Below, piece after piece: positions 1 through 20,000 of a stretch of 20,000 nucleotides of DNA; within the stretch, counting starts at the first letter, position 1, and every line of letters starts with the position of its first letter. The DNA lies in IMG/VR virus record IMGVR_UViG_3300025626_000018, positions 52,944 through 72,943 of that record, one strand, 5' to 3'. Made by a program: the position numbers and the translations under genes. This DNA comes from an uncultured virus (IMG/VR IMGVR_UViG_3300025626_000018) (Duplodnaviria; Heunggongvirae; Uroviricota; Caudoviricetes). The notes under the pieces were generated by a model that did no database searches, was not told the DNA's origin, and saw only the letters and a list, made by a program, of their open reading frames with translations.

Positions 1-106
1 TAGATCAAACACTATAACTGCAAATAATAACTTTGCACCATCTGGTTATGCACTAGCTGCATAAACACAGGGAGCTGGCCACTTGCTTAGCAACAGAAAA
101 GTGGCA
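1..106 (+). ncRNA. ssrA: tmRNA, 3' part (tag-coding piece), likely two-piece/permuted alphaproteobacterial type; 5' part lies outside the window
   Basis: 20-64 reads GCA AAT AAT AAC TTT GCA CCA TCT GGT TAT GCA CTA GCT GCA TAA = ANNNFAPSGYALAA*, after an ATAACT resume context and with no ATG. A GCCACTT/AAGTGGC stem (78-84/99-105) encloses GCAACAGAA, as in alpha-type tmRNA coding pieces. Confidence 0.85.
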
Positions 107-151
107 TATTTAATATTTAAAATTTTTATAAAATCAGAAAGAATATACGAA

Positions 152-946
152 ATGCGTAATTTACTTATCACATCTGCACTTGTAACAGGATTTGCTGGTG
201 CAGCATATGCTGAAACTACAGTACTGCCATATGGCCCAACATTATCTGGTAAAGCTGTTTTAACATTTGCAGAAACCGCTGCAGATAAATGGGCCGCAAC
301 TCCAACATTCGATCTTGGTATTGATGTTGCTGGTATTTCAACTGTAAACCTTGACTTTTCTGCAACAGACGGAAATGGTGTTACTCTTGATAATTGGACA
401 ATTGGCACACAAGTAGCCGGTATCGATATTGCAATTGGCGATGACAATGGTGTAATGCCAGGTGCCGAAGGCGAGCAAACACTTACTGCTCCAGCAATGG
501 CTGAATCTGTACAAGTAAATATGGGTGCAATTTCTGCGGCTATCGGATTTACTGATATTGCTGCCGATATTACAGATATTAGCAATGTACAGGGCGCAAT
601 TGTACTCCCATCCGTAGCTGGAATTGAAATTACTGCCGCTGCTGATTATAACTTAAATACTGAAAATACTGTATTTGGCGCCGGTGTTACTGGTGTTGAT
701 CTTGGTGTTGCCGCAGTTGGCGGTGCAGTATCTTATGATGTAGACACTACAGCAATAGGTTATGAGCTTGTAGCAAAGCAATCTGTAATTACAACATATA
801 TTAATGGTGACGACACTGATATGCTACAAAATATTGGTGGCGAATTTGTATATGGTATTGCGGGCGCTGAGCTTACCACAGGCGCAAATTATAATTTAAA
901 TAGTGAAGATTTTTCTCCTTCAATTGAATTAAGCTTTGCATTCTAA
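152..946 (+). CDS. Outer-membrane porin-like beta-barrel protein (Rhodobacter-porin style)
   Basis: Signal peptide MRNLLITSALVTGFAGAAYA from ATG 152; acidic, Gly-rich amphipathic strands; C-terminal BAM-type signal IELSFAF ending in Phe. Confidence 0.75.
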   Translation: MRNLLITSALVTGFAGAAYAETTVLPYGPTLSGKAVLTFAETAADKWAATPTFDLGIDVAGISTVNLDFSATDGNGVTLDNWTIGTQVAGIDIAIGDDNGVMPGAEGEQTLTAPAMAESVQVNMGAISAAIGFTDIAADITDISNVQGAIVLPSVAGIEITAAADYNLNTENTVFGAGVTGVDLGVAAVGGAVSYDVDTTAIGYELVAKQSVITTYINGDDTDMLQNIGGEFVYGIAGAELTTGANYNLNSEDFSPSIELSFAF

Positions 947-968
947 ACTAACCAATTAATTGGAAATT

Positions 969-997
969 AAGAGGAGCTTTGGCTCCTCTTTTTTTTT
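969..997 (+). terminator. Rho-independent terminator
   Basis: AAGAGGAGC-TTTG-GCTCCTCTT followed by a T run, directly after the porin gene. Confidence 0.9.
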
Positions 998-1014
998 GTA
1001 TAATTTTTTATATG

Positions 1015-1022
1015 TATAAATA
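1015..1022 (+). promoter_or_regulatory. T4-type late promoter
   Basis: Perfect TATAAATA after a terminator and upstream of the 1080-5614 gene run. Confidence 0.8.
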
Positions 1023-1079
1023 ACAATATGAATGAAAATTAAAAATCGAATGCATATAATTATTAGAGGATTATTTCGT

Positions 1080-1661
1080 ATGATTAAAAAAATGTTTTTT
1101 ACATTAGTAGTATTGAGTTTATCGACTGCGGTATTTGCACAAGACACCACAGATACTGTTACAGATGATACAATATATACAGATAATACTAATAATAGCA
1201 CAGTAAAATCTGATAGCAATTCTAATGCTACAATTAAATCTCCGCCACCTTCCGCAATTTCTCCCTCTATTAATGGGAGTAATTCTGATTTATGTACAAT
1301 AGGTGTAGCTGGTGCTGTACAAACTCAGATATTGGGTATTTCGGCCGGTAAAACAGTCCGTGATATGAATTGTGAGAAATTAAAAAACGCTAAAACTTTG
1401 TATGATATGGGTATGAAAGTTGCGGCAGTATCAGTTATGTGTGAAGATAATCGTGTGTTTACTGCAATGATGAATGCTGGTACACCATGTCCATTTGACG
1501 GTTTGATTGGTTCAGAAGCAAAAGACGCGTGGAATTCGCCTGATAACAAGCATTTACGACCAGATTCTGATAAAAAAAGAAAGGTGATGTCTGATGACAC
1601 TAAGAGCACTCTTGGTGGCGTTGGTGTGGTGGGCGGTTTGCTCCTCTTACTCCTTCTCTGA
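1080..1661 (+). CDS. Secreted Cys-containing hypothetical protein with C-terminal hydrophobic anchor
   Basis: AGAGGA RBS before ATG 1080; signal peptide ending AVFA; Thr/Ser/Asn-rich linker; PPPSAISP motif; 4 Cys; C-terminus GGVGVVGGLLLLLLL. Confidence 0.75.
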   Translation: MIKKMFFTLVVLSLSTAVFAQDTTDTVTDDTIYTDNTNNSTVKSDSNSNATIKSPPPSAISPSINGSNSDLCTIGVAGAVQTQILGISAGKTVRDMNCEKLKNAKTLYDMGMKVAAVSVMCEDNRVFTAMMNAGTPCPFDGLIGSEAKDAWNSPDNKHLRPDSDKKRKVMSDDTKSTLGGVGVVGGLLLLLLL

Positions 1662-2493
1662 AACAATATACGGAACTACCAATAATGTAACGTCCAATGG
1701 ATTATCTTGGAATATGACTGGTATTTTACCAGATCATTCTGCTCCAAATATTTCTCTTCAAATTAATGGAGTGATATATCAATATACAATGAACAAAGAT
1801 CCGGACGCTGACGCCAAAGTACATATTCGAAATGAAAATTCTACTGGTGATGGATATATTTTCGAAAAAACAGATGATTGGTCTGGTGGAAATGGCGGAA
1901 ATATTCGAAAGTTATATACCTTTCCTGGCTCAAATGCAGAATTATGGGGTGATGGGTCTATGGAAATAGAAGGTGATGGATCTATTAGCAATTCAACATT
2001 AATTTATTCATATAAAATGGATATTGGTGAAAATGCTATTAGCTGTATAAGTCCATTAAATGATCCATCTTGTCCCGGTTTTTTAGATGCATTATATAAA
2101 TATTTACAAGATATGGGATTAACAGAACTATCAGAAGACGATCCATATTATACAACATGGTTAGAATCCCAGACTGAAGCTGAAATAAAAGAAGAAGAAG
2201 AAGATCCAGAAAAAGATCTGGAAGAAATGGAAAATGAAGAAATGCAAAGTCGAATGAGGGTCGAAGGAGCTAGTAATAGCCTTATTGACCAAACTCAACA
2301 AAATGCTGCTTTTGAAGCATTAGCAAATCTTCCGATACTTGAATCATATTATACTGTACTCATCCCAGGCGGCGAATACAAAGAAGACTTACAAATTAAA
2401 GATTCAGTATTACCTGATAATAATAGAGCAATGCGATCACTATCTACAGACACACAACATAATACAATGGTACGCTCGCAATACAATAGATAA
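1594..2493 (+). CDS. Secreted acidic hypothetical protein
   Basis: Signal-peptide-like N-terminus, beta-rich N-domain, CISPLNDPSCPG motif, Glu-rich linker. Confidence 0.7.
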   Translation: MTLRALLVALVWWAVCSSYSFSETIYGTTNNVTSNGLSWNMTGILPDHSAPNISLQINGVIYQYTMNKDPDADAKVHIRNENSTGDGYIFEKTDDWSGGNGGNIRKLYTFPGSNAELWGDGSMEIEGDGSISNSTLIYSYKMDIGENAISCISPLNDPSCPGFLDALYKYLQDMGLTELSEDDPYYTTWLESQTEAEIKEEEEDPEKDLEEMENEEMQSRMRVEGASNSLIDQTQQNAAFEALANLPILESYYTVLIPGGEYKEDLQIKDSVLPDNNRAMRSLSTDTQHNTMVRSQYNR

Positions 2494-2507
2494 CATAGGA
2501 GAAATAA

Positions 2508-3005
2508 ATGTTTAGATCTATTTCTATATTATTCACCATTGCTTTTGCTTCAACAGCAATTGCTGAGGACTTTCCCATTACAGGAAATGTCACATCAAAA
2601 TGCACAATATATTCAGATACTCCGGGTGTATATGGTAACCCTACCCCAAATAAACTAAGCACTGCTCCGGCTGACGGTGGGGTTTTACCAGTTATTCGGT
2701 TTGACGTAGCGATTGCTGATTCATATCTTGCAAAAATTTCTACACCAAATACTTTTTCAACCAGCCCTACTTTAACAGATGCTGTAAACTGGACGGGCGA
2801 AGTAACAGTTGGCACTATGTCAGAAACTACTATGTCCGGTTATGAAACAGCAAAAGTTATATATGATAATACAACCGAATATGATCTTACTATAGCTGGC
2901 TCAACATGGTTTAATGTATCATCAACTGTAACATATGGATTTGATAAATCATTTCCGGGTGGCGAATATAAGGCTTTAGTTAGCGCAGAATGTATAGCAA
3001 AATAA
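2508..3005 (+). CDS. Secreted fimbrial/pilin-subunit-like protein (Ig-like beta sandwich)
   Basis: AGGAGA RBS; signal peptide; ITGNVTSKC at the mature N-terminus and PGGEYKALV near the C-terminus, resembling chaperone-usher/Csu-type pilins; Thr/Ser-rich. Confidence 0.55.
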   Translation: MFRSISILFTIAFASTAIAEDFPITGNVTSKCTIYSDTPGVYGNPTPNKLSTAPADGGVLPVIRFDVAIADSYLAKISTPNTFSTSPTLTDAVNWTGEVTVGTMSETTMSGYETAKVIYDNTTEYDLTIAGSTWFNVSSTVTYGFDKSFPGGEYKALVSAECIAK

Positions 3006-3364
3006 TATTATTTTTAGTGTTGGTGTCTACTTCAGCTACGGCCCATGAATGGACACCAACCTATCCAACACTAAAGAGGTCATATATGGATGGCCTTCTT
3101 TATACTAAAATGCGGCTATTTAATAAAAGAAAAGAAATACAATATTATGCTATCTCTGCACATGATGAAGAATGGAATAGTATTCCATTTGCAGCTTCTA
3201 ATAAAATTATAAGTGTAAATTATCTTGCTTATAAAGAAATTGAAATTTATATACGAGAAATAGATAAACCACGAATAACATATATTTGTTCAACATCGAA
3301 ATTACTAAAAAAAGATGTTATAACAACCGGTGTCTCATCGCGAATATGTTCGAAAATAAAGTGA
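2990..3364 (+). CDS. Secreted protein, possibly PapD-N-like pilus chaperone domain
   Basis: Signal peptide ending SATA; TP near the N-terminus, then MRLFN, beta-rich pattern, 2 Cys; follows the pilin-like gene. Confidence 0.45.
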   Translation: MYSKIILFLVLVSTSATAHEWTPTYPTLKRSYMDGLLYTKMRLFNKRKEIQYYAISAHDEEWNSIPFAASNKIISVNYLAYKEIEIYIREIDKPRITYICSTSKLLKKDVITTGVSSRICSKIK

Positions 3365-3372
3365 GATGAAAT

Positions 3373-3786
3373 ATGAAAAAAGTTACATTATGTATATTAT
3401 TAATATTTTTATTGGGACAAAAAGCAATTGCTGAATCGAGCTCTTTAAATTTACAAATACCAAATGGTCCTGCTAGTTATCAATCTGATAAATTTAAAGC
3501 TGGTGAATTAGATTGTTCAAACGCAATTGGTTCTGCTACTAATTTAGAATTTGGTGTTACTGGATTTATTACTGAACCCGATAATCTATCTGATAGGGAT
3601 TATTATAATTCTGATAATACTGATATTGGTGTATATGCAAGAATAACAATACCACTTGGCAAAACCACTAAATCTCGGATTGATTGTAATCAATTATTCG
3701 AATTAGAATTAAAGCGTAAGCGGTTAGAAATAATGAAATTAGAACAAGAAGTAAGGCAATTGCGAGAATTACAATTTGAGGAATAA
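3373..3786 (+). CDS. Secreted hypothetical protein with beta-hairpin and C-terminal coiled coil
   Basis: Signal peptide ending AIA; two Cys flanking strands NLEFGVTG and IGVYARITIPLG; heptad-rich C-terminus. Confidence 0.7.
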   Translation: MKKVTLCILLIFLLGQKAIAESSSLNLQIPNGPASYQSDKFKAGELDCSNAIGSATNLEFGVTGFITEPDNLSDRDYYNSDNTDIGVYARITIPLGKTTKSRIDCNQLFELELKRKRLEIMKLEQEVRQLRELQFEE

Positions 3787-5616: not shown

Positions 5617-6384
5617 TTATTTGATATTTTCAAATGGGTTTAATTTACTAGTGCCGGGCTTTAAGGAATACTTACTGCTCGGCATTTTAGTAATTTTAAC
5701 CTCGGGCTGCACCTCATAATACTTTGACCGCATACCAATGCGCATTTTGAATGGGCCAGTGCCAGAGAGTAATGGAACATCATTAGGAACGCCCATTGGA
5801 TTTGCAGAACCAATTCTATAGAAATCATCGCCGGCTTGCATATAATATGCTGGCTCGGATTTCCCTTTAAGATAATGCTGAGTAATTAACTCGCCCAAAT
5901 CTACTTCAGGTTTATTTAAAATATATTGTTTTTTACCTTTTAAATATGCAATCATTACATCACGTGGAACGGATTTTGGATCACTCAATCCAGAAATTAA
6001 TGTGGGTACTTTCATACCCTTTATTCCAGAAAACTTTTCAAGATCTTTTAACCATGCTTGAGTATCTTTATCGTTATTTAAGGTTTTAGTAATATATGCT
6101 TTAAGAGGAGATAATTTACCCTTACTAGGGCCTTTTTTATCAATTGCGGCAATCCATTTTTTACCGTCAAAACTAGCGCGAGTATTGCCAAGTTGGTCAG
6201 AGTGATTCATTTTAACTTCTAACCATATGCGATCGCCTTTATATTTAATAAGAATATCTGAATATGTTGGATCAACGGCTGGACGAGATGCGTCTAAACC
6301 CATATTGGCAATGTGTTTAGCCATATCATTTTCATACTTATCTGATTTAGCGCTTTCGCTTATAAATGATTTAAAAGTATACAT
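5617..6384 (-). CDS. PD-(D/E)xK nuclease-like protein with capsid-targeting-like N-terminus
   Basis: KYE...SDILI..IWLEVK catalytic-type pattern; N-terminus MYTFKSFISE resembles the T4 capsid targeting sequence MKTYQEFIAE. Confidence 0.6.
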   Translation of the reverse strand: MYTFKSFISESAKSDKYENDMAKHIANMGLDASRPAVDPTYSDILIKYKGDRIWLEVKMNHSDQLGNTRASFDGKKWIAAIDKKGPSKGKLSPLKAYITKTLNNDKDTQAWLKDLEKFSGIKGMKVPTLISGLSDPKSVPRDVMIAYLKGKKQYILNKPEVDLGELITQHYLKGKSEPAYYMQAGDDFYRIGSANPMGVPNDVPLLSGTGPFKMRIGMRSKYYEVQPEVKITKMPSSKYSLKPGTSKLNPFENIK

Positions 6385-9719: not shown

Positions 9720-9720
9720 G

Positions 9721-9749
9721 AAAAAGATGTCCTTTGGGGCATCTTTTTT
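9721..9749 (+). terminator. Stem-loop/terminator directly upstream of an early promoter
   Basis: AAAAAGATGTCC-TTTG-GGGCATCTTTTT hairpin. Confidence 0.75.
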
Positions 9750-9808: not shown

Positions 9809-10066
9809 ATGACTATTCAAAAACTTATCGATCAAACATTCAGCTATAGCTTAGAAGCACAAGATGCAGGCCTTGCTGATCTATATCTGGCCGATACGGC
9901 TGATTTTAAGCAGGTGCAGTGGCTGATGAATTCGAATGACATTGACGGCGCTTTAGCAAAAATCGGTAATATGGATACAGAACCACGTGAGCAGATCCTA
10001 TTGGCGATTGCTGAAGAGTATGGTAATGGATATTTAGAAACTGTAATAGGCTATGAGGTGGCATAA
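9809..10066 (+). CDS. Small acidic early protein (DTEPRE motif)
   Basis: AAGGAG RBS; own promoter; similar to the polyprotein module at 19440-19694. Confidence 0.8.
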   Translation: MTIQKLIDQTFSYSLEAQDAGLADLYLADTADFKQVQWLMNSNDIDGALAKIGNMDTEPREQILLAIAEEYGNGYLETVIGYEVA

Positions 10067-10510: not shown

Positions 10511-10583
10511 AAATAAAAAAAATGCATTTTAGGGGTTTACAATCAGATCTCTATATGATATAACTAATATATCAAAAAGGAGA
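10511..10583 (+). repeat. About 70-bp early promoter + RBS cassette, copy B
   Basis: -35 TTTACA at 10536-10541, -10 TATAAC at 10559-10564; only a few differences from copy A. Confidence 0.9.
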
Positions 10584-10589
10584 AACACT

Positions 10590-10796
10590 ATGCTTACTAC
10601 TTATGGCGCAATGATTAAGAATGACATTATCGAAGCTTTCAATGCTGCGGTGGTTAATCCAGAAAATATCCACGAAGGTGGCGGTATCAATTGGAACTTT
10701 GTTGAGTCTGATATCTTTATTCCACTTGGAGTCTTCTATGATACTGAGTATCTGAATGATTGCATTAGTGTGCTTGTTGATAACCACTTCGCATAA
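10590..10796 (+). CDS. Small acidic early protein (GINWNFV motif)
   Basis: Downstream of cassette B RBS; similar to the first polyprotein module at about 17586-17800. Confidence 0.8.
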   Translation: MLTTYGAMIKNDIIEAFNAAVVNPENIHEGGGINWNFVESDIFIPLGVFYDTEYLNDCISVLVDNHFA

Positions 10797-10812
10797 GGAA
10801 ACTAAAACAAAG

Positions 10813-10934
10813 GACTCTTTTCTGATTATATAGTACGAGCGAAGAACCGTAAAGGTAGGTATGCCCATGGAGCAGAACCCGTAAAATCCTGGTAAGGGAC
10901 TAAGTTAAGACCACTATATAATCAGCAAAGAGTC
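10813..10934 (+). ncRNA. Candidate structured ncRNA 1
   Basis: 10813-10834 pairs with 10913-10934 (21 of 22 bp), enclosing a relatively GC-rich core with small hairpins; no credible ORF. Confidence 0.6.
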
Positions 10935-10945
10935 TAAGACAAGGA

Positions 10946-11101
10946 AAACTATTTCATACATACGTCTGTGTAGAGGCGTTGATCAGCTAAAAGCACTATC
11001 TCGAAAGGGATGTTAGTTTCGATCGAACCAGAGCGGCAATGTCAATAAGGCCGTGCGGGGAGATTGGAGATACTAGCTCGGGCGTATGTATAAAATAGTT
11101 T
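10946..11101 (+). ncRNA. Candidate structured ncRNA 2
   Basis: 10946-10968 pairs with 11079-11101 (23 bp, one C-A mismatch, two G-U); internal ATCTC-GAAA-GGGAT and GCGGC/GCCGT hairpins. Confidence 0.65.
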
Positions 11102-11130
11102 CAAACGAAGATAAAAAAGTAAAAAAAGTG

Positions 11131-11159
11131 TGTACATTTTCTTTCTTTTATGTTATAAA
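11131..11159 (+). promoter_or_regulatory. sigma70-like early promoter
   Basis: TGTACA-17 nt-TATAAA with extended TG and A-tracts upstream. Confidence 0.6.
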
Positions 11160-11197
11160 TGTATATACAATGAAATGAAGCAAAGGGAAGAATCATT

Positions 11198-11368
11198 ATG
11201 AATTATTATACAAAACAAATCATGTCTATCCTTGATTGTAATCAAGCTTTTGCGCGGCTCATTCAAGATGAAATGGAGTATTCCGGTTTTGATTTTTCTG
11301 AAGCTACCGAAACTGAATTTCAACAAGAAGTTCAATATGCAGTAGATGTAGTAAGTGGTGTAGCATAA
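11198..11368 (+). CDS. Small acidic early protein (56 aa, not in ORF track)
   Basis: MNYYTKQIMSILDCNQAFARLIQDEMEYSGFDFSEATETEFQQEVQYAVDVVSGVA*; purine-rich RBS and promoter upstream. Confidence 0.7.
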   Translation: MNYYTKQIMSILDCNQAFARLIQDEMEYSGFDFSEATETEFQQEVQYAVDVVSGVA

Positions 11369-11370
11369 GA

Positions 11371-11559
11371 ATGACAATTTTTTCAACAGGTTCAATTAAT
11401 ACTGTAAATCATTGGATGGTCGGTACTAAATGGCAATATGCCAAAGGTATTGTTACTATGCATGATAATGGCTTTTCGTGTTCATGTAAAAAGAACCCTC
11501 GCAAACAGTGCACCCATATTCAGAATGTTAAACTAAGAATATTGGGTGTATTTCAATAA
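11371..11559 (+). CDS. SWIM-like zinc-finger protein
   Basis: FSCSC-x7-CTH (CxC..CxH) motif. Confidence 0.7.
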   Translation: MTIFSTGSINTVNHWMVGTKWQYAKGIVTMHDNGFSCSCKKNPRKQCTHIQNVKLRILGVFQ

Positions 11560-11625
11560 ATGCCACTAAAATAACGCATTTTATAAGTTTTTTTAAAAAT
11601 TAATTAATTAATTGTGTTTAGGGGG

Positions 11626-11654
11626 TTTACATTCGTTTTAAACTATGCTATAAA
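11626..11654 (+). promoter_or_regulatory. sigma70-like early promoter
   Basis: GGGGG-TTTACA-17 nt-TATAAA with extended TG; same TTTAGGGG(G)TTTACA context as cassettes A and B. Confidence 0.75.
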
Positions 11655-11688
11655 GAGGTATAAAATGAAAGCAAATAAGGATAGCGCA

Positions 11689-11841
11689 ATGTGGTATGTA
11701 GAAGCAATAATGAATTGGCAAACTCAGGAAACTGAGCGTTGGGAATATATTAGTGAAGAATGTGCAAAAGAGCTTCACTTAAAATACTATGACATGTTTG
11801 TACCATCAGTTAAAAGCGGAGTAATGAAATCATGCAAGTAG
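11689..11841 (+). CDS. Small hypothetical protein (alternative start 11665)
   Basis: AAGGA RBS before ATG 11689; downstream of the promoter. Confidence 0.6.
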   Translation: MWYVEAIMNWQTQETERWEYISEECAKELHLKYYDMFVPSVKSGVMKSCK

Positions 11842-12158
11842 TAAATAAAAGATATTCGGATTCTTATATTGGAACTTTTGAAAAAACCGCCGAAGATTCA
11901 AAAAGAATTGCAGATATTCGTAACATGGTAATTACTATGAATAAAGATTTAGCTCGTCATGGTGCTACACAGCGTTTTTATGTAAAATTGCAAGGCCGCA
12001 CAAAAAATCGCTATGAAAAAGTTAAAGACTATTATGCAAATAAACATCCATATATTAGCGAATCTGATCTTGTACGATTTGTAAAATCTCGAGTGCGTTG
12101 CTCAATACCGCTTGAGTTTGCAGAAAGACTTGATCTTTATATTTATGAAAAAACCTAA
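11832..12158 (+). CDS. Hypothetical protein
   Basis: 108-aa ORF with GGAG upstream, ending just before the terminator. Confidence 0.7.
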   Translation: MQVVNKRYSDSYIGTFEKTAEDSKRIADIRNMVITMNKDLARHGATQRFYVKLQGRTKNRYEKVKDYYANKHPYISESDLVRFVKSRVRCSIPLEFAERLDLYIYEKT

Positions 12159-12163
12159 AAATA

Positions 12164-12196
12164 AAAGCCCCCAACACATTAAGTATTGGGGGCTTT
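12164..12196 (+). terminator. Terminator hairpin closing the early region
   Basis: AAAGCCCCCAA...TTGGGGGCTTT inverted repeat. Confidence 0.8.
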
Positions 12197-12210
12197 ATAA
12201 TATTTTTTTA

Positions 12211-12218
12211 TATAAATA
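12211..12218 (+). promoter_or_regulatory. T4-type late promoter
   Basis: Perfect TATAAATA after the terminator, upstream of ORF 12250. Confidence 0.8.
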
Positions 12219-12249
12219 ATACTAATAAGTTTATTAGTGGAAAAAAATA

Positions 12250-13002
12250 ATGGATACTAGTCAATTAAATTCCGAGTTTCTTAATAGAGCTATGGTACGG
12301 ACCTCATTTAATTTAATTGCAAAAGATTTTGAATCTTTGACTTATAAAAAAGAAATTCAACATCTTTTTCATTTACATTTTTTTCCAAAATTTAATAATA
12401 GCAATGATGTTCATATAGATCGAATTACTGCGTCAGCTCTTAAAAAAGCAATTAAAACTGCACGGAATATAGATATCCGTAACTTCGAAGCATTATATAA
12501 GTATAATATTAAAGGGGTAGGACCCGGTGAAGTTATGCTATATTTTATTTTGAATAATGGACATTTGGGTGGAGGCTCTTCGGCCGGAGTTGATATTGTG
12601 GATGCAGCAGGAAGCTTTGAAGTTAAAGCTGTTGATTATTCGGCTAATGGTAAATATGTTAATAATTTTAAAATTGGGGGAACATTTTCTATTGCTGAAA
12701 TTATTCGCGGGATTCAAGATTTAAAAAAAGATGCTGGATTAGGAAGTGGATCCGAAGTTAATAGCGGACAACTTGATATAATAAGAAAACAATTTCCGGC
12801 GCAGCTTAAAGACCTTGAAGATGAATTTGTAGATCTAAGTTATAAAAATTATTTTAAAAATCATAAAATTATTTTTTTAGCTAATAAAACTGGCGCCGGA
12901 TTTTCTCTTGGGGACCTTATTGAAATTAAACTGGTTCAAAAGAAAGATATTATCTTAGAAAGAATAACTTCTGGCACAATTAAACCTAGGGTAAAAATGT
13001 AA
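12250..13002 (+). CDS. Hypothetical protein, possible PD-(D/E)xK nuclease fold
   Basis: GVGPGEV...GVDIV....FEVKA pattern (E..D..ExK). Confidence 0.5.
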   Translation: MDTSQLNSEFLNRAMVRTSFNLIAKDFESLTYKKEIQHLFHLHFFPKFNNSNDVHIDRITASALKKAIKTARNIDIRNFEALYKYNIKGVGPGEVMLYFILNNGHLGGGSSAGVDIVDAAGSFEVKAVDYSANGKYVNNFKIGGTFSIAEIIRGIQDLKKDAGLGSGSEVNSGQLDIIRKQFPAQLKDLEDEFVDLSYKNYFKNHKIIFLANKTGAGFSLGDLIEIKLVQKKDIILERITSGTIKPRVKM

Positions 13003-13016
13003 AGAGGGAATTATAA

Positions 13017-13805
13017 ATGGCACAGTATAGCGTTAGTAGACAAAATCCACTTCATGCTGGAAATAATGATATTCATGAAGTGATTATGATGGCTGATAAA
13101 AATGGTAATATACTTAACGGCAATGGAAATGTTGGTAATATTCCACTTGCAGCCGGTTTAATTGCTAATTATAATCATATTAATAAATTTGGTGCTACTC
13201 CGGGCGATATAACAGCAGGCAGTATTTGGGACGGTAATACTGGAAGCAGTACTTATGTATTTCCGACTGTTCCATCTGTAATTTCTGTTGTTTCAACACA
13301 AAATTCTGGTGCGAGTGTTTTTATTCAAGGATTAGATGAAAATTATAATGATCAAAGTGAAACTATTCCTATTGGTTCAACTGGGGTAAAAACTTTTCTT
13401 AGAGTTTATAGAGCATATATGGTTGATATTAATAATGATGCTAACGTTATTATTAGTATTGGAGCCACAACCGCCGCGCAGATTACTGCAAATGAAGCTC
13501 AAACCTTAATGGCTATTTATACAGTACCCGCTGGTAAAACTGCTTATATGCTTTCATTAAGATTTGGTTCATCAAAGGCTAGTACTAATTCGGCTATGAA
13601 ATACACACTAAGACAAAGAACTTTTCAAGATGGCGGAATTTTCCGAAATAAAGGAACATATTTCGCAGCCGGCGGGCAAAACACATTTATTGAATACCCA
13701 ATACCATTAGTATTTGCAGAAAAAAGTGATATTCGTGTAGATGCTGTTGCTGCTCAACAAACAGAAGTAAATGCTTCTTTTGATCTTATACTAATAAACA
13801 ATTAA
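13017..13805 (+). CDS. Beta-rich late protein, possibly virion structural
   Basis: HINKFG, IQGLDENY and YTVPAGKTAY motifs recalled from phage hypotheticals; lies in the late operon. Confidence 0.55.
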   Translation: MAQYSVSRQNPLHAGNNDIHEVIMMADKNGNILNGNGNVGNIPLAAGLIANYNHINKFGATPGDITAGSIWDGNTGSSTYVFPTVPSVISVVSTQNSGASVFIQGLDENYNDQSETIPIGSTGVKTFLRVYRAYMVDINNDANVIISIGATTAAQITANEAQTLMAIYTVPAGKTAYMLSLRFGSSKASTNSAMKYTLRQRTFQDGGIFRNKGTYFAAGGQNTFIEYPIPLVFAEKSDIRVDAVAAQQTEVNASFDLILINN

Positions 13806-13837
13806 ACATACATTATAATACGGATAATATTTAAAAT

Positions 13838-15067
13838 ATGGAAAACTTTAAATCTTTCATTGCTGAAAACAAAAATACTCACATGACACACCTTGAAGAT
13901 AAGGTGATTTATGGTGGTGTTAATGGTACTCGTCAAGCTATTATGGCTTTGCGCGAATTGCGTAATATGTTAAAGGGCGAACATGACGGGAAAATATCTG
14001 TTAAATGGGATGGAGCACCAGCAGTATTTGCTGGCATTGATCCAGCTGATGGCAAATTTTTTGTTGCTAAAAAGGGTATTTTTAATAAAAATCCAAAAGT
14101 ATATAAAACTCCAGGTGAGGTAGATGCAGATACTTCAGGCGATTTAGCTATAAAGCTTAAGCAAGCCTTACAATATTTACCCGAATTGGGAATTACTGAA
14201 GTTATTCAGGGCGATTTTTTATACGGCCCAGGCGATCTTAGTAATGAAACTATTGCTGGTGAAAAATATATCACCTTCCATCCAAATACTATTGTTTATG
14301 CTGTACCAGCTAATACAGTATCATCAAAAGAAATTTTAGCATCTAAAATTGGTATTGTTTGGCATACTACATATAAAGGTAATACATTTGAAACTATGAA
14401 AGCTTCATATGGTGTTAATGTTTCTCGTCTTAAAAAATCAAAAAATGTTTGGTCGCAAGATGCTATGCTTCGTGATATGACAAATCTTACTATGAATAAG
14501 TCTGATTCCGATATAGTAAATGACTATTTAACTCAAGCTGGAAAATTATTTAATAAAATTTCGGGGGGCGTTTTACGCACCTTAGAAGCTAATACTGATT
14601 TAACACAATTAATAGAGCAACATTCAAATTCTTATGTACGGGCAGGCCAAATGCCCCCGGATCCAGCCAAAAGAGTAACGGCACTTATTAAATTTATTGA
14701 AGCAAAATTCCAAAAAGAAATGGATAAGCTTAAAACTGAAAAAGGTAAGGGGCGCAAACAAGATAAACTGAATGATATTTTATCATTTTTTTCGGCTAAT
14801 AATAAAAATAATTTGATAACTATGTTCGAATTGCAGAAAGTTATTGTCTTAGCGAAATTAAAACTTATAAATATACTTGATAGGATAAATAAAGTAAAGA
14901 CTTTTGTAAAAACTAAAAATGGTTTTAAAACAACGGGTCAAGAAGGTTATGTAGCAATTGATAGACTGGGTAGTGACGCTGTAAAGATTGTTGATAGATT
15001 AGAATTTTCATACAACAACTTTTCGCCAGATATTATTAAAGGATGGGATAAGCCAGGGAGAAGTTAA
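13838..15067 (+). CDS. DUF6267-like protein; ATP-dependent ligase-type nucleotidyltransferase motifs; capsid-targeting-like N-terminus
   Basis: HMTHLED, KWDGAP (KxDG), QGDFLY, EGYV and AVKIVDR motifs; N-terminus MENFKSFIAE. Confidence 0.75.
   Translation: MENFKSFIAENKNTHMTHLEDKVIYGGVNGTRQAIMALRELRNMLKGEHDGKISVKWDGAPAVFAGIDPADGKFFVAKKGIFNKNPKVYKTPGEVDADTSGDLAIKLKQALQYLPELGITEVIQGDFLYGPGDLSNETIAGEKYITFHPNTIVYAVPANTVSSKEILASKIGIVWHTTYKGNTFETMKASYGVNVSRLKKSKNVWSQDAMLRDMTNLTMNKSDSDIVNDYLTQAGKLFNKISGGVLRTLEANTDLTQLIEQHSNSYVRAGQMPPDPAKRVTALIKFIEAKFQKEMDKLKTEKGKGRKQDKLNDILSFFSANNKNNLITMFELQKVIVLAKLKLINILDRINKVKTFVKTKNGFKTTGQEGYVAIDRLGSDAVKIVDRLEFSYNNFSPDIIKGWDKPGRS
14866..14873 (+). promoter_or_regulatory. 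Possible internal T4 late promoter
   Basis: TATAAATA inside the upstream CDS, about 190 nt before ORF 15067. Confidence 0.4.
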
Positions 15068-15513
15068 TGATTAGATTTAAAGATCTAAGAGTTGTAGATA
15101 TGCGTGATGGAGAACCAGACGAAGTTCAACATCAAGCACATAGAGCAAAAAGAACTAGCGTTGATGAAGGCCCAGACGAGGCGCTGAATATTCAACAGCG
15201 ATTAGCTCGCGGCCGTAGTATGAAACGTAATAAAGCTAAATTAAAAATGGGGCGCAACCGCGCCGCACGTCGTACTGCCAATAAAGATGTGTTAAAAAAA
15301 CGTGCACGTAAAGCAGCCCGTAATATTATTCTTAAAAAACTTACAAAAGATATTCCGAAAAGTGATATGTCAGTTGCTCGTAAAATGGAATTAGAAAAAC
15401 GGCTTGAGAAAATGGGCTCAAGAATAGATCGCATTGCTGTAAAATTGCTTCCAAAAATGCGTCAAGCTGAAAAAGATAGAAAACAGCATAAGGCACAATC
15501 TAAAAATGGTTAA
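15067..15513 (+). CDS. Highly basic Arg/Lys-rich protein, putative internal head protein
   Basis: Acidic leader ending SVDEGPDEA, then a very basic helical region. Confidence 0.7.
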   Translation: MIRFKDLRVVDMRDGEPDEVQHQAHRAKRTSVDEGPDEALNIQQRLARGRSMKRNKAKLKMGRNRAARRTANKDVLKKRARKAARNIILKKLTKDIPKSDMSVARKMELEKRLEKMGSRIDRIAVKLLPKMRQAEKDRKQHKAQSKNG

Positions 15514-16708
15514 TTCTTTTAAACAATACATTATTGAAGAAGACCAAATAGTATATTTTACTTTTGGTAGATTAAATCCACCTACTGTTGGTCATGGTAA
15601 ATTATTAAATAAACTAGCCAAAACCGCTGGCCGTTTGCCGTATAAAATCTTTTTATCTCAATCTCAGGATAAAAAAGATAATCCTTTGAAATACGCGGAT
15701 AAGGTAAAGCATGTGCGAAAAATGTTTCCAAAACATGCCCGCAATATTTTAATTAATAAAAAAATTATTAATCCTTTTTTTGCATTAGCTTATCTTTATG
15801 AGCAGGGTTTCCGTAAAGTTATTATGGTAGCCGGTAGTGATAGAGTGGATGAATATAAAATTAGATTAAATAAATATAATGGAGTTGATTCTACTCACGG
15901 ATTTTATAATTTTAATGGTGGGGTTCAGGTAATATCGGCCGGTATGCGAGATGCTGATAGCGATGGCCCAGACGGTGCGTCTGGAACTAAGCAGCGTAAA
16001 TTTGCCACAGAGAATAATTTCACAAAATTTTATGAAGGTCTTCCTACTTCAATGAGTAATTCTGATGCAAAAAAACTTTTTAATGATGTGCGTAAAGGCA
16101 TGGGATTAAAAGAAGAAACCGAATTTAAACGTCACATTCAATTAGAATCTATTTCTGATATTAGAGAGCAATATGTAAAGGGTGATTTGTATTCTATAGG
16201 CGAAGAAATTATTATTACTGAAACAAGCGAGGTTGGTATTATTGCAACCCTTGGCCCAAATTATGTAATTGTTGAAACTTCATCCGGAAAATCTAGACAA
16301 TGGCTTGATAGAATTGAAAAAATTGAAGAAAAAACAACTACTACCCAAGATCCCGATATTGCGGACCGTGATGGGGCGCAGCCTAAAAAGTATTTTGCTG
16401 GAATAAAGAACAAGTCTACAAAAATTGCTAGAGACCAACATTTTAAAAAGAATGCTAAAAAGGCTGATAATAATCCCGATGCTTATAAAAAAGCACCAGG
16501 CGATGCCACTGCAAAAACTAAGCCAAGTAAGCACACTAAACGATTTGCACAAATGTTTGGCGATACCGACGAAGAAATTGATTATATTGATAAAGTAAAT
16601 GATAGAATTAATAGAGAAAAAAGAGCAGATAAAATCAAATTTGATGCAATGCGAGATCGCGCGCGAACTTTACAAACACGTTCAACAAATAGATCGACAA
16701 AGCCATGA
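15506..16708 (+). CDS. Cytidylyltransferase-like (HIGH-superfamily) nucleotidyltransferase with extra C-terminal modules
   Basis: FTFGRLNPPTVGH, NPL, VAGSDRV, SAGMRD and SGTKQR motifs; N-terminus MVNSFKQYIIEE; C-terminal PKKYFAG...TKPSKHTKRF module. Confidence 0.85.
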   Translation: MVNSFKQYIIEEDQIVYFTFGRLNPPTVGHGKLLNKLAKTAGRLPYKIFLSQSQDKKDNPLKYADKVKHVRKMFPKHARNILINKKIINPFFALAYLYEQGFRKVIMVAGSDRVDEYKIRLNKYNGVDSTHGFYNFNGGVQVISAGMRDADSDGPDGASGTKQRKFATENNFTKFYEGLPTSMSNSDAKKLFNDVRKGMGLKEETEFKRHIQLESISDIREQYVKGDLYSIGEEIIITETSEVGIIATLGPNYVIVETSSGKSRQWLDRIEKIEEKTTTTQDPDIADRDGAQPKKYFAGIKNKSTKIARDQHFKKNAKKADNNPDAYKKAPGDATAKTKPSKHTKRFAQMFGDTDEEIDYIDKVNDRINREKRADKIKFDAMRDRARTLQTRSTNRSTKP

Positions 16709-16953
16709 AAACTTTTAAACAATTTAATGAAAATACTAAAGCACTTAAAAATAAAGCGGAAAAATCTGGAATGCCATTAAGTGTTTTACGTAGTGTATAT
16801 AACCGCGGTGTAGCGGCTTGGAAAACCGGTCATAGACCTGGAACCACTCCTGAACAATGGGGATTTGCTAGGGTTAATTCGTTTACTACAAAATCTCCGG
16901 GCACATGGGGCAAAGCCGATAAAGATTTAGCGGATAAAGTAAGAGGCAAGTAA
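16705..16953 (+). CDS. DUF5824-like small protein with capsid-targeting-like N-terminus
   Basis: VYNRGVAAWKTGHRPGTTPEQWGFARVNSF; N-terminus MKTFKQFNE. Confidence 0.75.
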   Translation: MKTFKQFNENTKALKNKAEKSGMPLSVLRSVYNRGVAAWKTGHRPGTTPEQWGFARVNSFTTKSPGTWGKADKDLADKVRGK

Positions 16954-16954
16954 A

Positions 16955-17575
16955 ATGGCAGTTAAATCAGCAGATAGAAAACCAGAAAAATATATTGGTC
17001 CAGACGGTAAGGTAAGAATTCGTATGGTTCCGGTTGATAAAGAAGTTGTTAAGAGTGAAAAAGCGTTTAAAGAAATGCGTAGTAAATATTCTAAGCGCGA
17101 ACCCATGAAAAAAGTAAAACCTATGGGTGAAGCCAAAGATCCTGAAGAGTATGATAAAGAAGGTGATATGGCTAAGACACAACTCAAGACAATGATTGAC
17201 GCTGCCCAAGAACTACACGATCAATTGTCTGATGATGAGAACATGCCTGAATGGGTACAGAATAAGATTACTAAAGCTACAGATTATATCGATTCAGTGC
17301 GTGATTATATGAAAAATAATGATGACGTCAATGAAGAGACTATTGATGAAGTTCTAGATCGTCCAGGCGCATTGGATAGCTATAGAAAAAAAGCTAAAAT
17401 GAAAAGTGATAAGGCTCGTAATACTGCAACAGCTAAACTTCTTCGCGGCAATCCTGAAATTTCAAAAGAAAAAGAAACTATTCGTAAGCGTGAAAAGGGC
17501 CAAGACATGTCTGATAGAGTTGGTGTTAAACAATTCCGTAAATCAATCGGTAGAGGTTACAATGGAAAATCGTAA
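16955..17575 (+). CDS. Modular hypothetical protein, putative internal head protein
   Basis: EGDMAKTQL...MPEWVQNKITKATDYIDSV domain flanked by MGE|A and IDE|V type sites. Confidence 0.7.
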   Translation: MAVKSADRKPEKYIGPDGKVRIRMVPVDKEVVKSEKAFKEMRSKYSKREPMKKVKPMGEAKDPEEYDKEGDMAKTQLKTMIDAAQELHDQLSDDENMPEWVQNKITKATDYIDSVRDYMKNNDDVNEETIDEVLDRPGALDSYRKKAKMKSDKARNTATAKLLRGNPEISKEKETIRKREKGQDMSDRVGVKQFRKSIGRGYNGKS

Positions 17576-20000
17576 TTTGCAAGAGGCTTCTCTTAATAAA
17601 TCTAATATTGAAAAACACATAAAAAAGTCTTTAAAAGATAAGGCTAATTATAATAAAGATGGTTCAATTAATTGGGATCTTGTTAATGATGATGTTATGA
17701 TGGCAATGCCTTCGGCCGCCGAAAATGAAAAAACTTATACTAAACTATTCAATTCCGCGGCCGATAAAATGGATAAATCTATGTCACGTAAAGAAAATAC
17801 CGAAGAGTCTATGCAATTAACAAAAAATGCTATAACAAAATCTGGCAATTCAAATGTTATGAAATCTTTTAAGATAAGCAAGCTTAAAAATGATCTTGCA
17901 GCACTTCGTAAAAATTTAAAACAGCCAAATCCAGGATCACCAAAGCGTGGCTCAGCTTATGAAGCAAAAACCGAAATTAAAAAAGGTGATACTGTTCGTT
18001 TAAAAAAGAAATACGCTGACGGACCAGCCGAAGCTAAAATGGATTATATTGTAAAAGAATTAAGAGGACCGCGAGTTCTTATTGCCCCAAAAGTATGGAA
18101 AAGTGGTGGAATTGTTCCAACGGAATCTGTACAAATGTATATGATTGAAAAGCCTGCAATGGCAGAAGCTACCACAGAAATTACACAAATTAAAGGATTA
18201 ACTGAAATGACCGACAAACATTCTGCTATTTTCGATAAGTTAAAGAAAAATGATAATGTAAAAATTAAATTTGATTCAACGTTATCTAAAGGTGGAGATT
18301 TTGTCGAATATAAAGTTTTATCAAAAACAACCGTTTTAAAAGGTAAGCCTTCCGAACAAGAAAAAATTACTCTTCAAGCAAAATCTGGTGGTGTTAAATC
18401 TTTCTTACGTAGAAAAAAGGACGGTAAAATTACCTTTGCTATTGGCGATTTAGGTGCAAGTCTTATCGATATGAAAGAAGGTATTGAATATGTAGATGAA
18501 GCTAAATTACCAGCTAAAAAGATTATTAAAGATCTTGAAGCCAAAATGTCTATTGATGTCATTGTTGGTAAATATATTGACAAGCGTTCTAGTAATAGAG
18601 ATGCAATCTTAAAAATTATCCGCGATTATAATTGGAATAAATTTAAACAAAATATAAACAGCGAAACCGATAAGGGCGATGAGGCTATTTCTGAAGCTAA
18701 AACCGGTCAAATCCGTATTATAGATTTGTCGAATGCCCACCCTGATAACAGAGCCGGCGCTAAAGCAAAATCCGGGTTTCAGGTTCAAAAGTTTTCTGGT
18801 GGCAAATTTGTTAATCAAGGTGCCCCATATTCATCTAAAGCCGCAGCCGAAAAGGTTCGTGGCAGTGGCCAACATACTATGCAATTTGAATCGCTTGACG
18901 AAGCCGTTTTACGGGATCGCGATTATGAAGTAAAAAATAATAAAGTTTATATTTCAAAAGCTAACTTTAAAAAAATTCACAAAGATTTTAAAATTGCTCG
19001 TAAAGGTGATGAAATGATGATGGTTAATGGTGGGTCTAAAGGATCCATCCTTGTTCCAGTTGAATTTACCGAATCTGTTGAGGAGGCTCGGCAGTTAAAA
19101 AATCCTAAAACCGAAGTCATGGTTGTAGATAAAGCCGGCAAAACTATTGTTATTGATAAGACTAAACAAAAAGAATATCTTGCAAAGGGTTGGAAGCTTG
19201 CTGAATCTGTTAATGAAACAACCACGCCGATGAGAAACAGATTTGGTCCAGCAGTAGATTCTAAAAAGTTTGATGCATATAAAAAGCATATGAAAGCCAA
19301 TAAATTAGACGAACCAACAGTTCGCATGGCTCATCAAAATCCAGATGATGCTGAGTCAAAGCGAATGATGAAAAACCCAGCATATTCTAAAGGTTTAGAA
19401 TTGTACAAAGCCTCAATAAGAGAATCGAATCTTGATGAAGCTACAATGTCACGTGTTGCAAAAGAACTTGAAGATTATGCCCGTAAACATGGCGGCATTG
19501 ATAAGATGGACTTTATAAAAGCTGCTATGATGATGAAGAAAGGTCAAACAGCACAACTGAAGAAGTTTGTCGATGACTTAGACACAGAGCCACGTGAAAA
19601 AATTCTTTCTTTATTAGATAAAGACGCAGACCGCCGCAAAGAATACAAAGCATTTCAGAAAAATATACGTAATGAAGAAATTGAACTTGATGAAGGCGTA
19701 AAAGAAAGAGCAGTAAAGGCCCTAATGACAAAGGCTCTTGGTGGTAAAAGAGCAAAAGCCGGAACAACTTCTCGTATTGCTGATAACGGCGATTTTATTG
19801 TTACAGATGGGGGTGGACGTATTATTGGCCGCTTAAAGGCCGATAGCTTTACTAATCCGCTAGAAGAGGCTGCTGGTACCAGTGCTAAATACAAAGATAA
19901 TAAAGGTCTATTTGGCGGTAAATATACCTCCAGTGATCGGGCCGCAGCAATGTCTGGCAAAAAATTTATTGATTGGCGTAATAAAAAGCAATCAAAAAAT
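17562..20000 (+). CDS. Large modular Lys-rich protein (at least 813 aa, runs off the window); putative protease-processed internal head polyprotein
   Basis: Manual translation from ATG 17562 (AGAGG RBS), MENRNLQEASLNK..., is open to 20000 with no stop; about 12 recurring [LIVM]-x-E|[A/G/T/M]-like linker sites. Confidence 0.85.
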   Translation, partial: MENRNLQEASLNKSNIEKHIKKSLKDKANYNKDGSINWDLVNDDVMMAMPSAAENEKTYTKLFNSAADKMDKSMSRKENTEESMQLTKNAITKSGNSNVMKSFKISKLKNDLAALRKNLKQPNPGSPKRGSAYEAKTEIKKGDTVRLKKKYADGPAEAKMDYIVKELRGPRVLIAPKVWKSGGIVPTESVQMYMIEKPAMAEATTEITQIKGLTEMTDKHSAIFDKLKKNDNVKIKFDSTLSKGGDFVEYKVLSKTTVLKGKPSEQEKITLQAKSGGVKSFLRRKKDGKITFAIGDLGASLIDMKEGIEYVDEAKLPAKKIIKDLEAKMSIDVIVGKYIDKRSSNRDAILKIIRDYNWNKFKQNINSETDKGDEAISEAKTGQIRIIDLSNAHPDNRAGAKAKSGFQVQKFSGGKFVNQGAPYSSKAAAEKVRGSGQHTMQFESLDEAVLRDRDYEVKNNKVYISKANFKKIHKDFKIARKGDEMMMVNGGSKGSILVPVEFTESVEEARQLKNPKTEVMVVDKAGKTIVIDKTKQKEYLAKGWKLAESVNETTTPMRNRFGPAVDSKKFDAYKKHMKANKLDEPTVRMAHQNPDDAESKRMMKNPAYSKGLELYKASIRESNLDEATMSRVAKELEDYARKHGGIDKMDFIKAAMMMKKGQTAQLKKFVDDLDTEPREKILSLLDKDADRRKEYKAFQKNIRNEEIELDEGVKERAVKALMTKALGGKRAKAGTTSRIADNGDFIVTDGGGRIIGRLKADSFTNPLEEAAGTSAKYKDNKGLFGGKYTSSDRAAAMSGKKFIDWRNKKQSKN

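Follow-up and report, generated by a model that had tools for sequence, protein, structure and literature searches.

Can a small, putatively early gene of a phage and one unit of a late polyprotein encoded a few kilobases downstream be two forms of a single domain? The question is raised by the final 20 kb of the 72,943-bp contig of an uncultured, marine T4-like phage (IMG/VR record IMGVR_UViG_3300025626_000018, positions 52,944 to 72,943; these 20,000 nucleotides are referred to below as the window). Here the open reading frame (ORF) 10590 lies within a run of small ORFs, and a long ORF starting at 17562 codes for a modular polyprotein punctuated by glutamate (Glu)-containing linkers. The labels 'early' and 'packaged', as we use them for the two, are presumptive and derive from promoter and linker motifs. 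ORF 10590 and the first unit of the polyprotein, module 1, are homologous and represent one small domain.

A first-pass annotation of the window had matched two 18-residue segments from the sequence alone, and alignment confirmed the match: residues 25-42 of ORF 10590 (10662-10715) pair without gaps with polyprotein residues 28-45 (17643-17696), with 7 of 18 positions identical. The pairwise similarity is marginal (BLASTP, 25.4 bits, 9/37 identical; phmmer, E 0.012 against the genome's non-overlapping ORF set), and taken by itself this score would allow a chance or convergent likeness of two short helical peptides. The profile comparisons make such a coincidence hardly credible. A profile of 65 stand-alone sequences finds module 1 at 18.1 bits, a score that none of 2000 shuffled polyproteins reached (maximum 6.1), and a profile of 144 short stand-alone sequences matches polyprotein residues ~13-82, i.e. 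the full length of the domain, with 43.4 bits (E 6e-13). Reversal controls likewise speak against chance, as does the existence of an intermediate form in another protein, P0244. A comparison by hhalign gave a probability of 96.6 (E 5e-10). The reciprocal match was also obtained: a profile of the two embedded modules, module 1 and that of P0244, was run against 311 genome ORFs and, besides the polyprotein itself, picked out ORF 10590 at E 8e-5, its paralogue at E 4e-5 and nothing else noteworthy.

The outcome that the annotation had named as refuting, profiles that miss one another and predicted folds that differ, did not occur: the profiles match in both directions, and the folds agree. The model of ORF 10590 (predicted local distance difference test, pLDDT, 96) was built with 140 stand-alone rows and that of module 1 (pLDDT 84) from a two-row alignment with P0244 only, free of stand-alone members. 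Both consist of a helix, a short turn with a tiny hairpin, a helix starting from the invariant Trp and a further helix, that is, a three-helix topology, and the secondary-structure strings, compared without superposition, are the same from helix 1 through helix 2. A helix ahead of the motif, as the annotation had predicted for both copies, is present in the two models (H11-21 and H5-16). The top two matches among the viral structures of BFVD are common to both models; they are unnamed entries with probabilities of 0.91-1.00 and E-values of only 0.035-0.12. The lists of weak matches share 19 of 50 PDB entries, as counted by eye. Foldseek found no PDB match at E<=0.001, the best VIA matches (PNPase helical domain and BsaWI, Z 5.7 and 6.2) were within background, and the ESM Atlas yielded no usable feature match, its structure rows being below threshold.

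The stand-alone form belongs to a large, unnamed family of acidic proteins of 60-100 residues, encoded mostly behind sigma70-like promoters. ORF 10590 has 89 close homologues, 64 of which were combined with it in the 65-sequence profile; this profile had 210 matches at E<=0.001 among 50%-identity representatives, and the 150 of them that were listed supplied the 143 new sequences of at most 120 residues that form the larger profile together with ORF 10590. Three long matches of the same search were unrelated repeat proteins and were excluded. Residues N24, W33 and D39 (profile numbering) are present in 100% of 116 non-redundant stand-alone rows. Sufficient upstream sequence was available for 82 distinct stand-alone genes; of these, 49 carry a sigma70-like motif, searched for with a permissive pattern, within 250 nucleotides (nt) upstream (shuffles: mean 4.3, maximum 10), and none is preceded by the late motif TATAAATA. 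The family extends beyond close relatives of this phage, as loci L172-L174 and L178 have no BLAST match (E 1e-6) to the proteins of this genome. ORF 10590 matched no PHROG or Pfam family, no family was matched by more than one of 140 members, a PDB sequence search gave a single match at E 0.24, and no cultured phage matched the member P0131. The phage family delimited in this way is widespread and unnamed, has a confidently modelled fold and contains residues that never vary.

Some members of this family occur in particular settings. A 96-residue paralogue of ORF 10590 (L012:1021-1311, genome positions 51020-51310) lies 2 kb upstream of the window behind the same type of promoter. In L170 two family genes adjoin each other. 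The domain is also fused C-terminally in proteins of 171-175 residues (P0212, P0214 and L128:3614-4126) that lack the Glu-linker layout; P0214 is the next-best match of module 1 after P0244. In L173 (6412-6952), a phage-like contig, a family gene stands beside two sulfur-relay-type ORFs, which we take, from their sequences, to be TusA-like and TusE-like.

The two forms differ in charge. ORF 10590 has a net charge of -9 and an isoelectric point (pI) of 4.05, and when charge is counted over one fixed stretch around the Trp, the median for 337 non-polyprotein domains is -9 (maximum +3), against +1 for module 1 and +4 for the P0244 module. Over residues 9-82 module 1 has a net charge of 0 (pI 6.8), and over residues 9-76 a pI of 8.9. 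The annotation was therefore right about the acidity of the early copy and overstated that the module is basic; it is neutral to mildly basic. Both embedded modules retain the invariant N, W and D.

Where module 1 came from is indicated by the second embedded copy. P0244 is a different modular protein of 378 residues, in which the domain, its family signature complete, is bounded by I-E-E and L-E-E. Module 1 is 35% identical to this copy and 24% identical to ORF 10590. In a ranking of 344 domains (342 non-polyprotein and the two embedded ones, four proteins without the motif having been dropped), the best non-self match of module 1 is the P0244 module, and ORF 10590, represented by a sequence 97% identical to it, comes 242nd. 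Both modules fall into one five-row group (Shimodaira-Hasegawa-like approximate likelihood ratio test, SH-aLRT, 90) of a 120-row tree, apart from ORF 10590 and its paralogue, and they are sisters in a 32-row tree with support 93/59. This ranking and placement indicate that module 1 was acquired long ago from the wider family; a recent copying of module 1 from the neighbouring ORF 10590 is disfavoured. The traffic of domains between early cassettes and polyprotein proposed by the annotation thus stands as sharing across lineages, with three pairs, and is not supported within this genome, because of the rank of the ORF 10590 proxy and the separation of the two in the trees.

That stand-alone genes derive from modules, or that module 1 is a recent, local copy of ORF 10590, appears very improbable. 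It would fit the presence of two pairs within one 20-kb window, and the trees, being unrooted, do not contradict it: forcing module 1 together with ORF 10590 costs 16.7 log units, and the approximately unbiased (AU) test, performed on 32 of the 120 tree rows, rejects neither this grouping (p 0.126) nor that with the paralogue (p 0.097). However, 342 diverse non-polyprotein domains are found against two embedded ones, these two are nearest neighbours by path in both trees, and the identities given above favour P0244 over ORF 10590. The direction from stand-alone gene to module is likely. A search of longer sequences for further embedded copies gave one match among 8000 scored candidates and, as it missed this polyprotein itself, was insensitive; with a motif adapted to embedded copies, nothing turned up beyond two stand-alone genes and copies of this same polyprotein. 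No variant site occurs in module 1 across the nine near-identical loci covering it.

The pairing of ORF 10590 with module 1 is not isolated. The other pair to which the annotation alluded holds: ORF 9809 and polyprotein module 627-711, both of the family we call DTEPRE, match by profiles in both directions (stand-alone profile to polyprotein, 18.3 bits, E 1.4e-5; module profile to ORF 9809, 12.9 bits, E 6e-4). Charges in this family are -10 to -12 for four stand-alone genes and -2 to +4 for 11 modules. When 246 promoter-led small ORFs (104 families) were compared with 84 cluster proteins, four families exceeded 25 bits, namely that of ORF 10590, DTEPRE, one cluster gene misfiled as early and one new pair; the next-best family scored 8.8, the maximum of reversed controls was 9.1, and the family of ORF 11198 scored 4.0 bits. 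Since the ORF 10590 and DTEPRE families had been enriched by the way in which loci were fetched, the unbiased yield is 1 of 101. In the new, third pair, which comes from other phages, a 53-residue gene of L114 (2736-2894, minus strand) matches a Glu-bounded bead of L035:9422-11434 with 38.5 bits; L138:507-626 is grouped with this pair, whose core reads G-N-T-S-S-x-K-M-K-K-Y-A. Taken together, these comparisons support a sharing of domains between presumed early cassettes and presumed late polyproteins across lineages.

The polyprotein is truncated by the contig end, and its near-identical relatives P0093 and P0094 give full lengths of 952 and 943 residues, or about a dozen units. P0093 contains 12 [ILV]-[DENQST]-E sites, which delimit pieces of 32-207 residues, all of them neutral or basic after the leader; a similar site pattern gives 12 occurrences against 3.3 in shuffles. 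Relative to P0093, P0094 has acquired one entire module and is missing another, in each case at linker sites. The DTEPRE module, which is the one lost, is flanked by a 10-nt direct repeat located in both L-D-E linkers (19431-19440 and 19686-19695), and this repeat of linker codons suggests recombination at the linkers. With its many domains and its gain, loss and exchange of modules among relatives, the polyprotein is mosaic in the manner of polyvalent proteins. Two hybrid cargo genes (L016:7261-9339 and L017:2169-3845) have another N-terminal half joined at E-E-A to polyprotein residues 506 onward. Pfam gave no match at cut-off for P0093, P0094 or P0244, and in phage records the polyprotein was matched through other modules only, in five records; the Melnitz phages have such other modules in common with it.

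Homology, a common predicted fold, modularity and loss of charge call for an explanation, and the one we prefer, somewhat likelier right than wrong in our estimation, is that mini-genes of the early cassettes are taken up into late head-cargo polyproteins, where they form beads bounded by Glu; these polyproteins would be cut by gp21, delivered with the DNA and act on the host. The domain would have entered the late cluster through one old capture of a stand-alone gene whose subfamily is not that of ORF 10590, and short repeats in the linker codons may then have let it pass, by recombination, from one cargo gene to another. The polyprotein would be built into the prohead and cut after Glu by a gp21-type protease, as the motifs and an enzyme detected in S-CREM2 virions suggest, and the freed module would enter the cell together with the DNA. 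At the weakest step, the domain would bind a conserved host protein, for takeover or counter-defence, through its invariant N/W/D core; we guess at such a target from the small size, the early placement and the invariant core. The packaged copy might thus act before any transcription and the early copy sustain the effect, as with Alt and ModA/ModB of T4. Acidic residues may have been lost because the cargo must be packed together with DNA. DNA mimicry as a function kept in the packaged copy is disfavoured, as that copy is not acidic.

Several results weigh against this explanation. In the third pair there is no shift from acidic to basic, the stand-alone protein having a charge of +2. The support for the sister grouping (93/59) is weak, and the AU test leaves the grouping of module 1 with ORF 10590 standing. 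Only two distinct embedded versions were found: the domain occurs in 7 of the 84 cluster proteins, and six of these seven are near-identical. Packaging and cutting in this phage are suggested by motifs, and in the available part of the S-CREM2 report, which describes a cytidylyltransferase in virions, the authors allow for co-purification as its source (PMC10665884). No family or fold match names a target. Module 1 carries F35L, D37N, A38D and Y41M, each found in 0% (rounded down) of the 116 stand-alone rows, so that W-D-L-V-N-D-D replaces W-N/D-F/Y-V-D/E-A/S-D and the full family signature is not kept; with four signature positions drifted, its function may be lost.

This drift, together with the loss of five acidic positions, makes a serious rival of the possibility, unlikely in our view, that the domain, although captured, packaged and cut, no longer acts on its host target and has turned into a basic DNA-binding or space-filling core peptide. 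It is in keeping with the neutral or basic character of all strict-site P0093 fragments after the leader, with a mean charge of cluster proteins of +4.3 per 100 residues against -2.1 for others, and with the presence of histone H1 and winged-helix domains among the weak, non-significant fold neighbours (Z 4-5). Yet in P0244 the signature is intact and the gain in charge lies at other positions, the invariant N, W and D persist in both modules, and a filler would not need to preserve surface motifs.

The linkers themselves provide further points against the proposed cutting. For plain [ILV]-x-E the enrichment is slight in P0093 (16 against 10.0, p 0.03) and absent in P0244 (7 against 5.4, p 0.29). 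On the C-side module 1 ends in T-E-E, not L/I-x-E, and the next strict site is at residue 215; the L-Q-E on its N-side fits L/I-x-E, and the P0244 module fits on both sides. The release of module 1 as a 74-mer is consequently uncertain. The eight-residue, Glu-ended leader of the polyprotein also lacks the F-x-x-F pattern of three neighbouring genes, a pattern derived from the window's own leaders and from what we take to be the T4 layout. One could imagine a late multidomain protein, not packaged or left uncut, whose Glu motifs are just flexible acidic linkers and points of recombination; the indirect nature of the case for packaging and the non-canonical site downstream of module 1 would agree with this. 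We find it improbable, given that [ILV]-x-E-[ASGN] is enriched alike over shuffles in P0093 (11 against 2.8), P0244 (5 against 1.4) and the scaffold (12 against 3.1), and that leader-like N-termini are found in 21 of 84 cluster proteins against 26 of 983 others.

Known systems, as described in the portions of the cited sources that were available, offer partial parallels. The T4 internal proteins (IPs) IPI-III and Alt carry a capsid-targeting propeptide that is removed by gp21 after L/I-x-E (PMC9026906). They share with the present phage a gp21-containing head of the T4 type, short leaders that end in Glu, Glu sites and small, variable, mostly basic units. The T4 IPs are single small genes, whereas the present ORF, of 952 residues, strings together about a dozen units; stand-alone early counterparts of IPs are absent from the descriptions in these sources. 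Sequence searches matched no IP family. By the features tested, the polyprotein would work like the IPs without being one, and it is not a polyvalent protein either. A single family in packaged and non-packaged forms is known from Alt and ModA/ModB of T4 (PMC5512222), and Macro, NADAR and Nudix genes are located either early or among virion genes (PMC9503650). The dual deployment of one domain family would be similar here; in those cases whole enzymes of known activity are involved, unlike the unnamed mini-proteins of 50-90 residues that form beads of a chain, and the loss of acidic charge, seen in two of our three pairs, sets ours apart. Polyvalent proteins of phages and conjugative elements, with 2-15 domains per polypeptide, likewise combine many unrelated domains, are mosaic between relatives and have related solo versions (PMC5512222). 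We detected no known polyvalent domain or embedded peptidase in the present polyprotein, for which release would instead proceed through the head protease at Glu linkers. The promoter-early stem-loop (PeSL) cassettes of T4-like phages, which shuffle within variable regions (PMC2839356, PMC4122927), resemble the small-ORF run in the repeated sigma70-like promoter and ribosome site ahead of small variable ORFans; they differ in that no clear stem-loop precedes the promoter at 10536, and the available PeSL descriptions contain no export to late polyproteins. In the literature covered, which did not extend to subscription papers and supplements, we found no description of the pairing of stand-alone genes with modules.

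Tentatively, and with less confidence than for this phage, one may extend the explanation to aquatic T4-like phages in general: repeated capture of mini-genes between protease-site linkers, often with loss of acidity, could form an early-to-packaged route that allows host targeting from the capsid at time zero. If this is true, the polyprotein modules would naturally point to a short list of early ORFans, namely those that count most during the first minute of infection. It would also offer an origin for otherwise unassignable beads of T4-like head-cargo polyproteins and link the two most variable parts of T4-like phage genomes. The matched pairs, acidic when stand-alone and neutral or basic when embedded, would show which changes are needed for packing with DNA and ejection.

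Coordinates of the features discussed (window positions)
Feature	Position	Strand	Basis or remark
ORF 9809, stand-alone acidic gene of the DTEPRE family, the second one paired with a module	9809..10066	+	Reciprocal hidden Markov models (HMMs)
Predicted sigma70-like early promoter of ORF 10590	10536..10564	+	TTTACA, 17 nt, TG-extended TATAAC; one of five repeat copies
ORF 10590, 68-residue acidic stand-alone protein of the unnamed three-helix family, core N-x8-W-x2-V-x2-D	10590..10796	+	AGGAG at 10578-10582
Strong hairpin between early cassettes and late cluster	12164-12196	n/a	Hairpin scan
Motif TATAAATA, presumed late promoter of T4 type, upstream of the cluster that contains the polyprotein	12211..12218	+	Motif scan; another at 14866
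Upstream cluster genes (DUF6267, cytidylyltransferase-like, DUF5824, others)	13838..17575	+	Family searches
Modular Glu-punctuated late polyprotein, truncated by contig end	17562..20000	+	ATG 17562; relatives P0093, P0094
Leader of eight residues ending L-Q-E, predicted gp21-type cut site	17562..17585	+	Translation; cleavage putative
Module 1 (homologue of ORF 10590), residues 9-82, with T-E-E at its end	17586..17807	+	HMM, 43.4 bits
DTEPRE module, residues 627-711	19440..19694	+	Absent from P0094 exactly between two L-D-E

The genome encodes T4-type head genes, including the prohead protease gp21 (PF03420, 140.8 bits), the scaffold (PF25623) and the major capsid protein gp23 (PF07068). In the window, the early small ORFs are followed by the hairpin, by TATAAATA, which we take from T4 to be a late promoter motif, by the cluster of DUF6267, cytidylyltransferase-like and DUF5824 genes and by the long ORF at 17562; three of the upstream cluster genes have short F-x-x-F/Y...E leaders. 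Five of the small ORFs are preceded by copies of one 28-nt promoter-like repeat (9751, 10106, 10536, 11131 and 11626). The cassette of ORF 10590 has PeSL features, namely a sigma70-like promoter with AT-rich upstream DNA, a ribosome site and a small ORF; a stricter promoter scan did not list the promoter at 10536. A stem-loop (9720-9749) stands directly before the 9751 promoter, and ahead of that at 10536 the hairpin scan found none, the sequence having a 12-nt palindrome only. Four metatranscriptome runs from one study contain 87-88% of the region's words as contigs, in which strand and timing are not resolvable. Metagenome-assembled genomes of mixed taxa gave eight matches, which resemble binned phage contigs and were set aside as evidence on the host.

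Other parts of the window (83-3786) encode, by eye, a porin-like secreted ORF and then a run of signal-peptide ORFs (1032-3786), possibly host-surface proteins. Two ORFs of ~250 residues, at 5617-6384 (minus strand) and 12250-13002 (plus strand), resemble a restriction-nuclease fold by eye; the former begins with a Glu-ended leader like those of the cluster genes, and the latter has no Pfam or PHROG match. Immediately behind ORF 10590, two long-stem, multibranched RNA-like elements (10813-10934 and 10946-11101, plus strand; fold z -5.8) had no Rfam match. The second of them is 74-91% conserved at eight other loci, near genes of the ORF 10590 family, and shows two-sided changes in 9 of 45 predicted pairs (seven rows). 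The two elements are candidates for an unnamed phage non-coding RNA.

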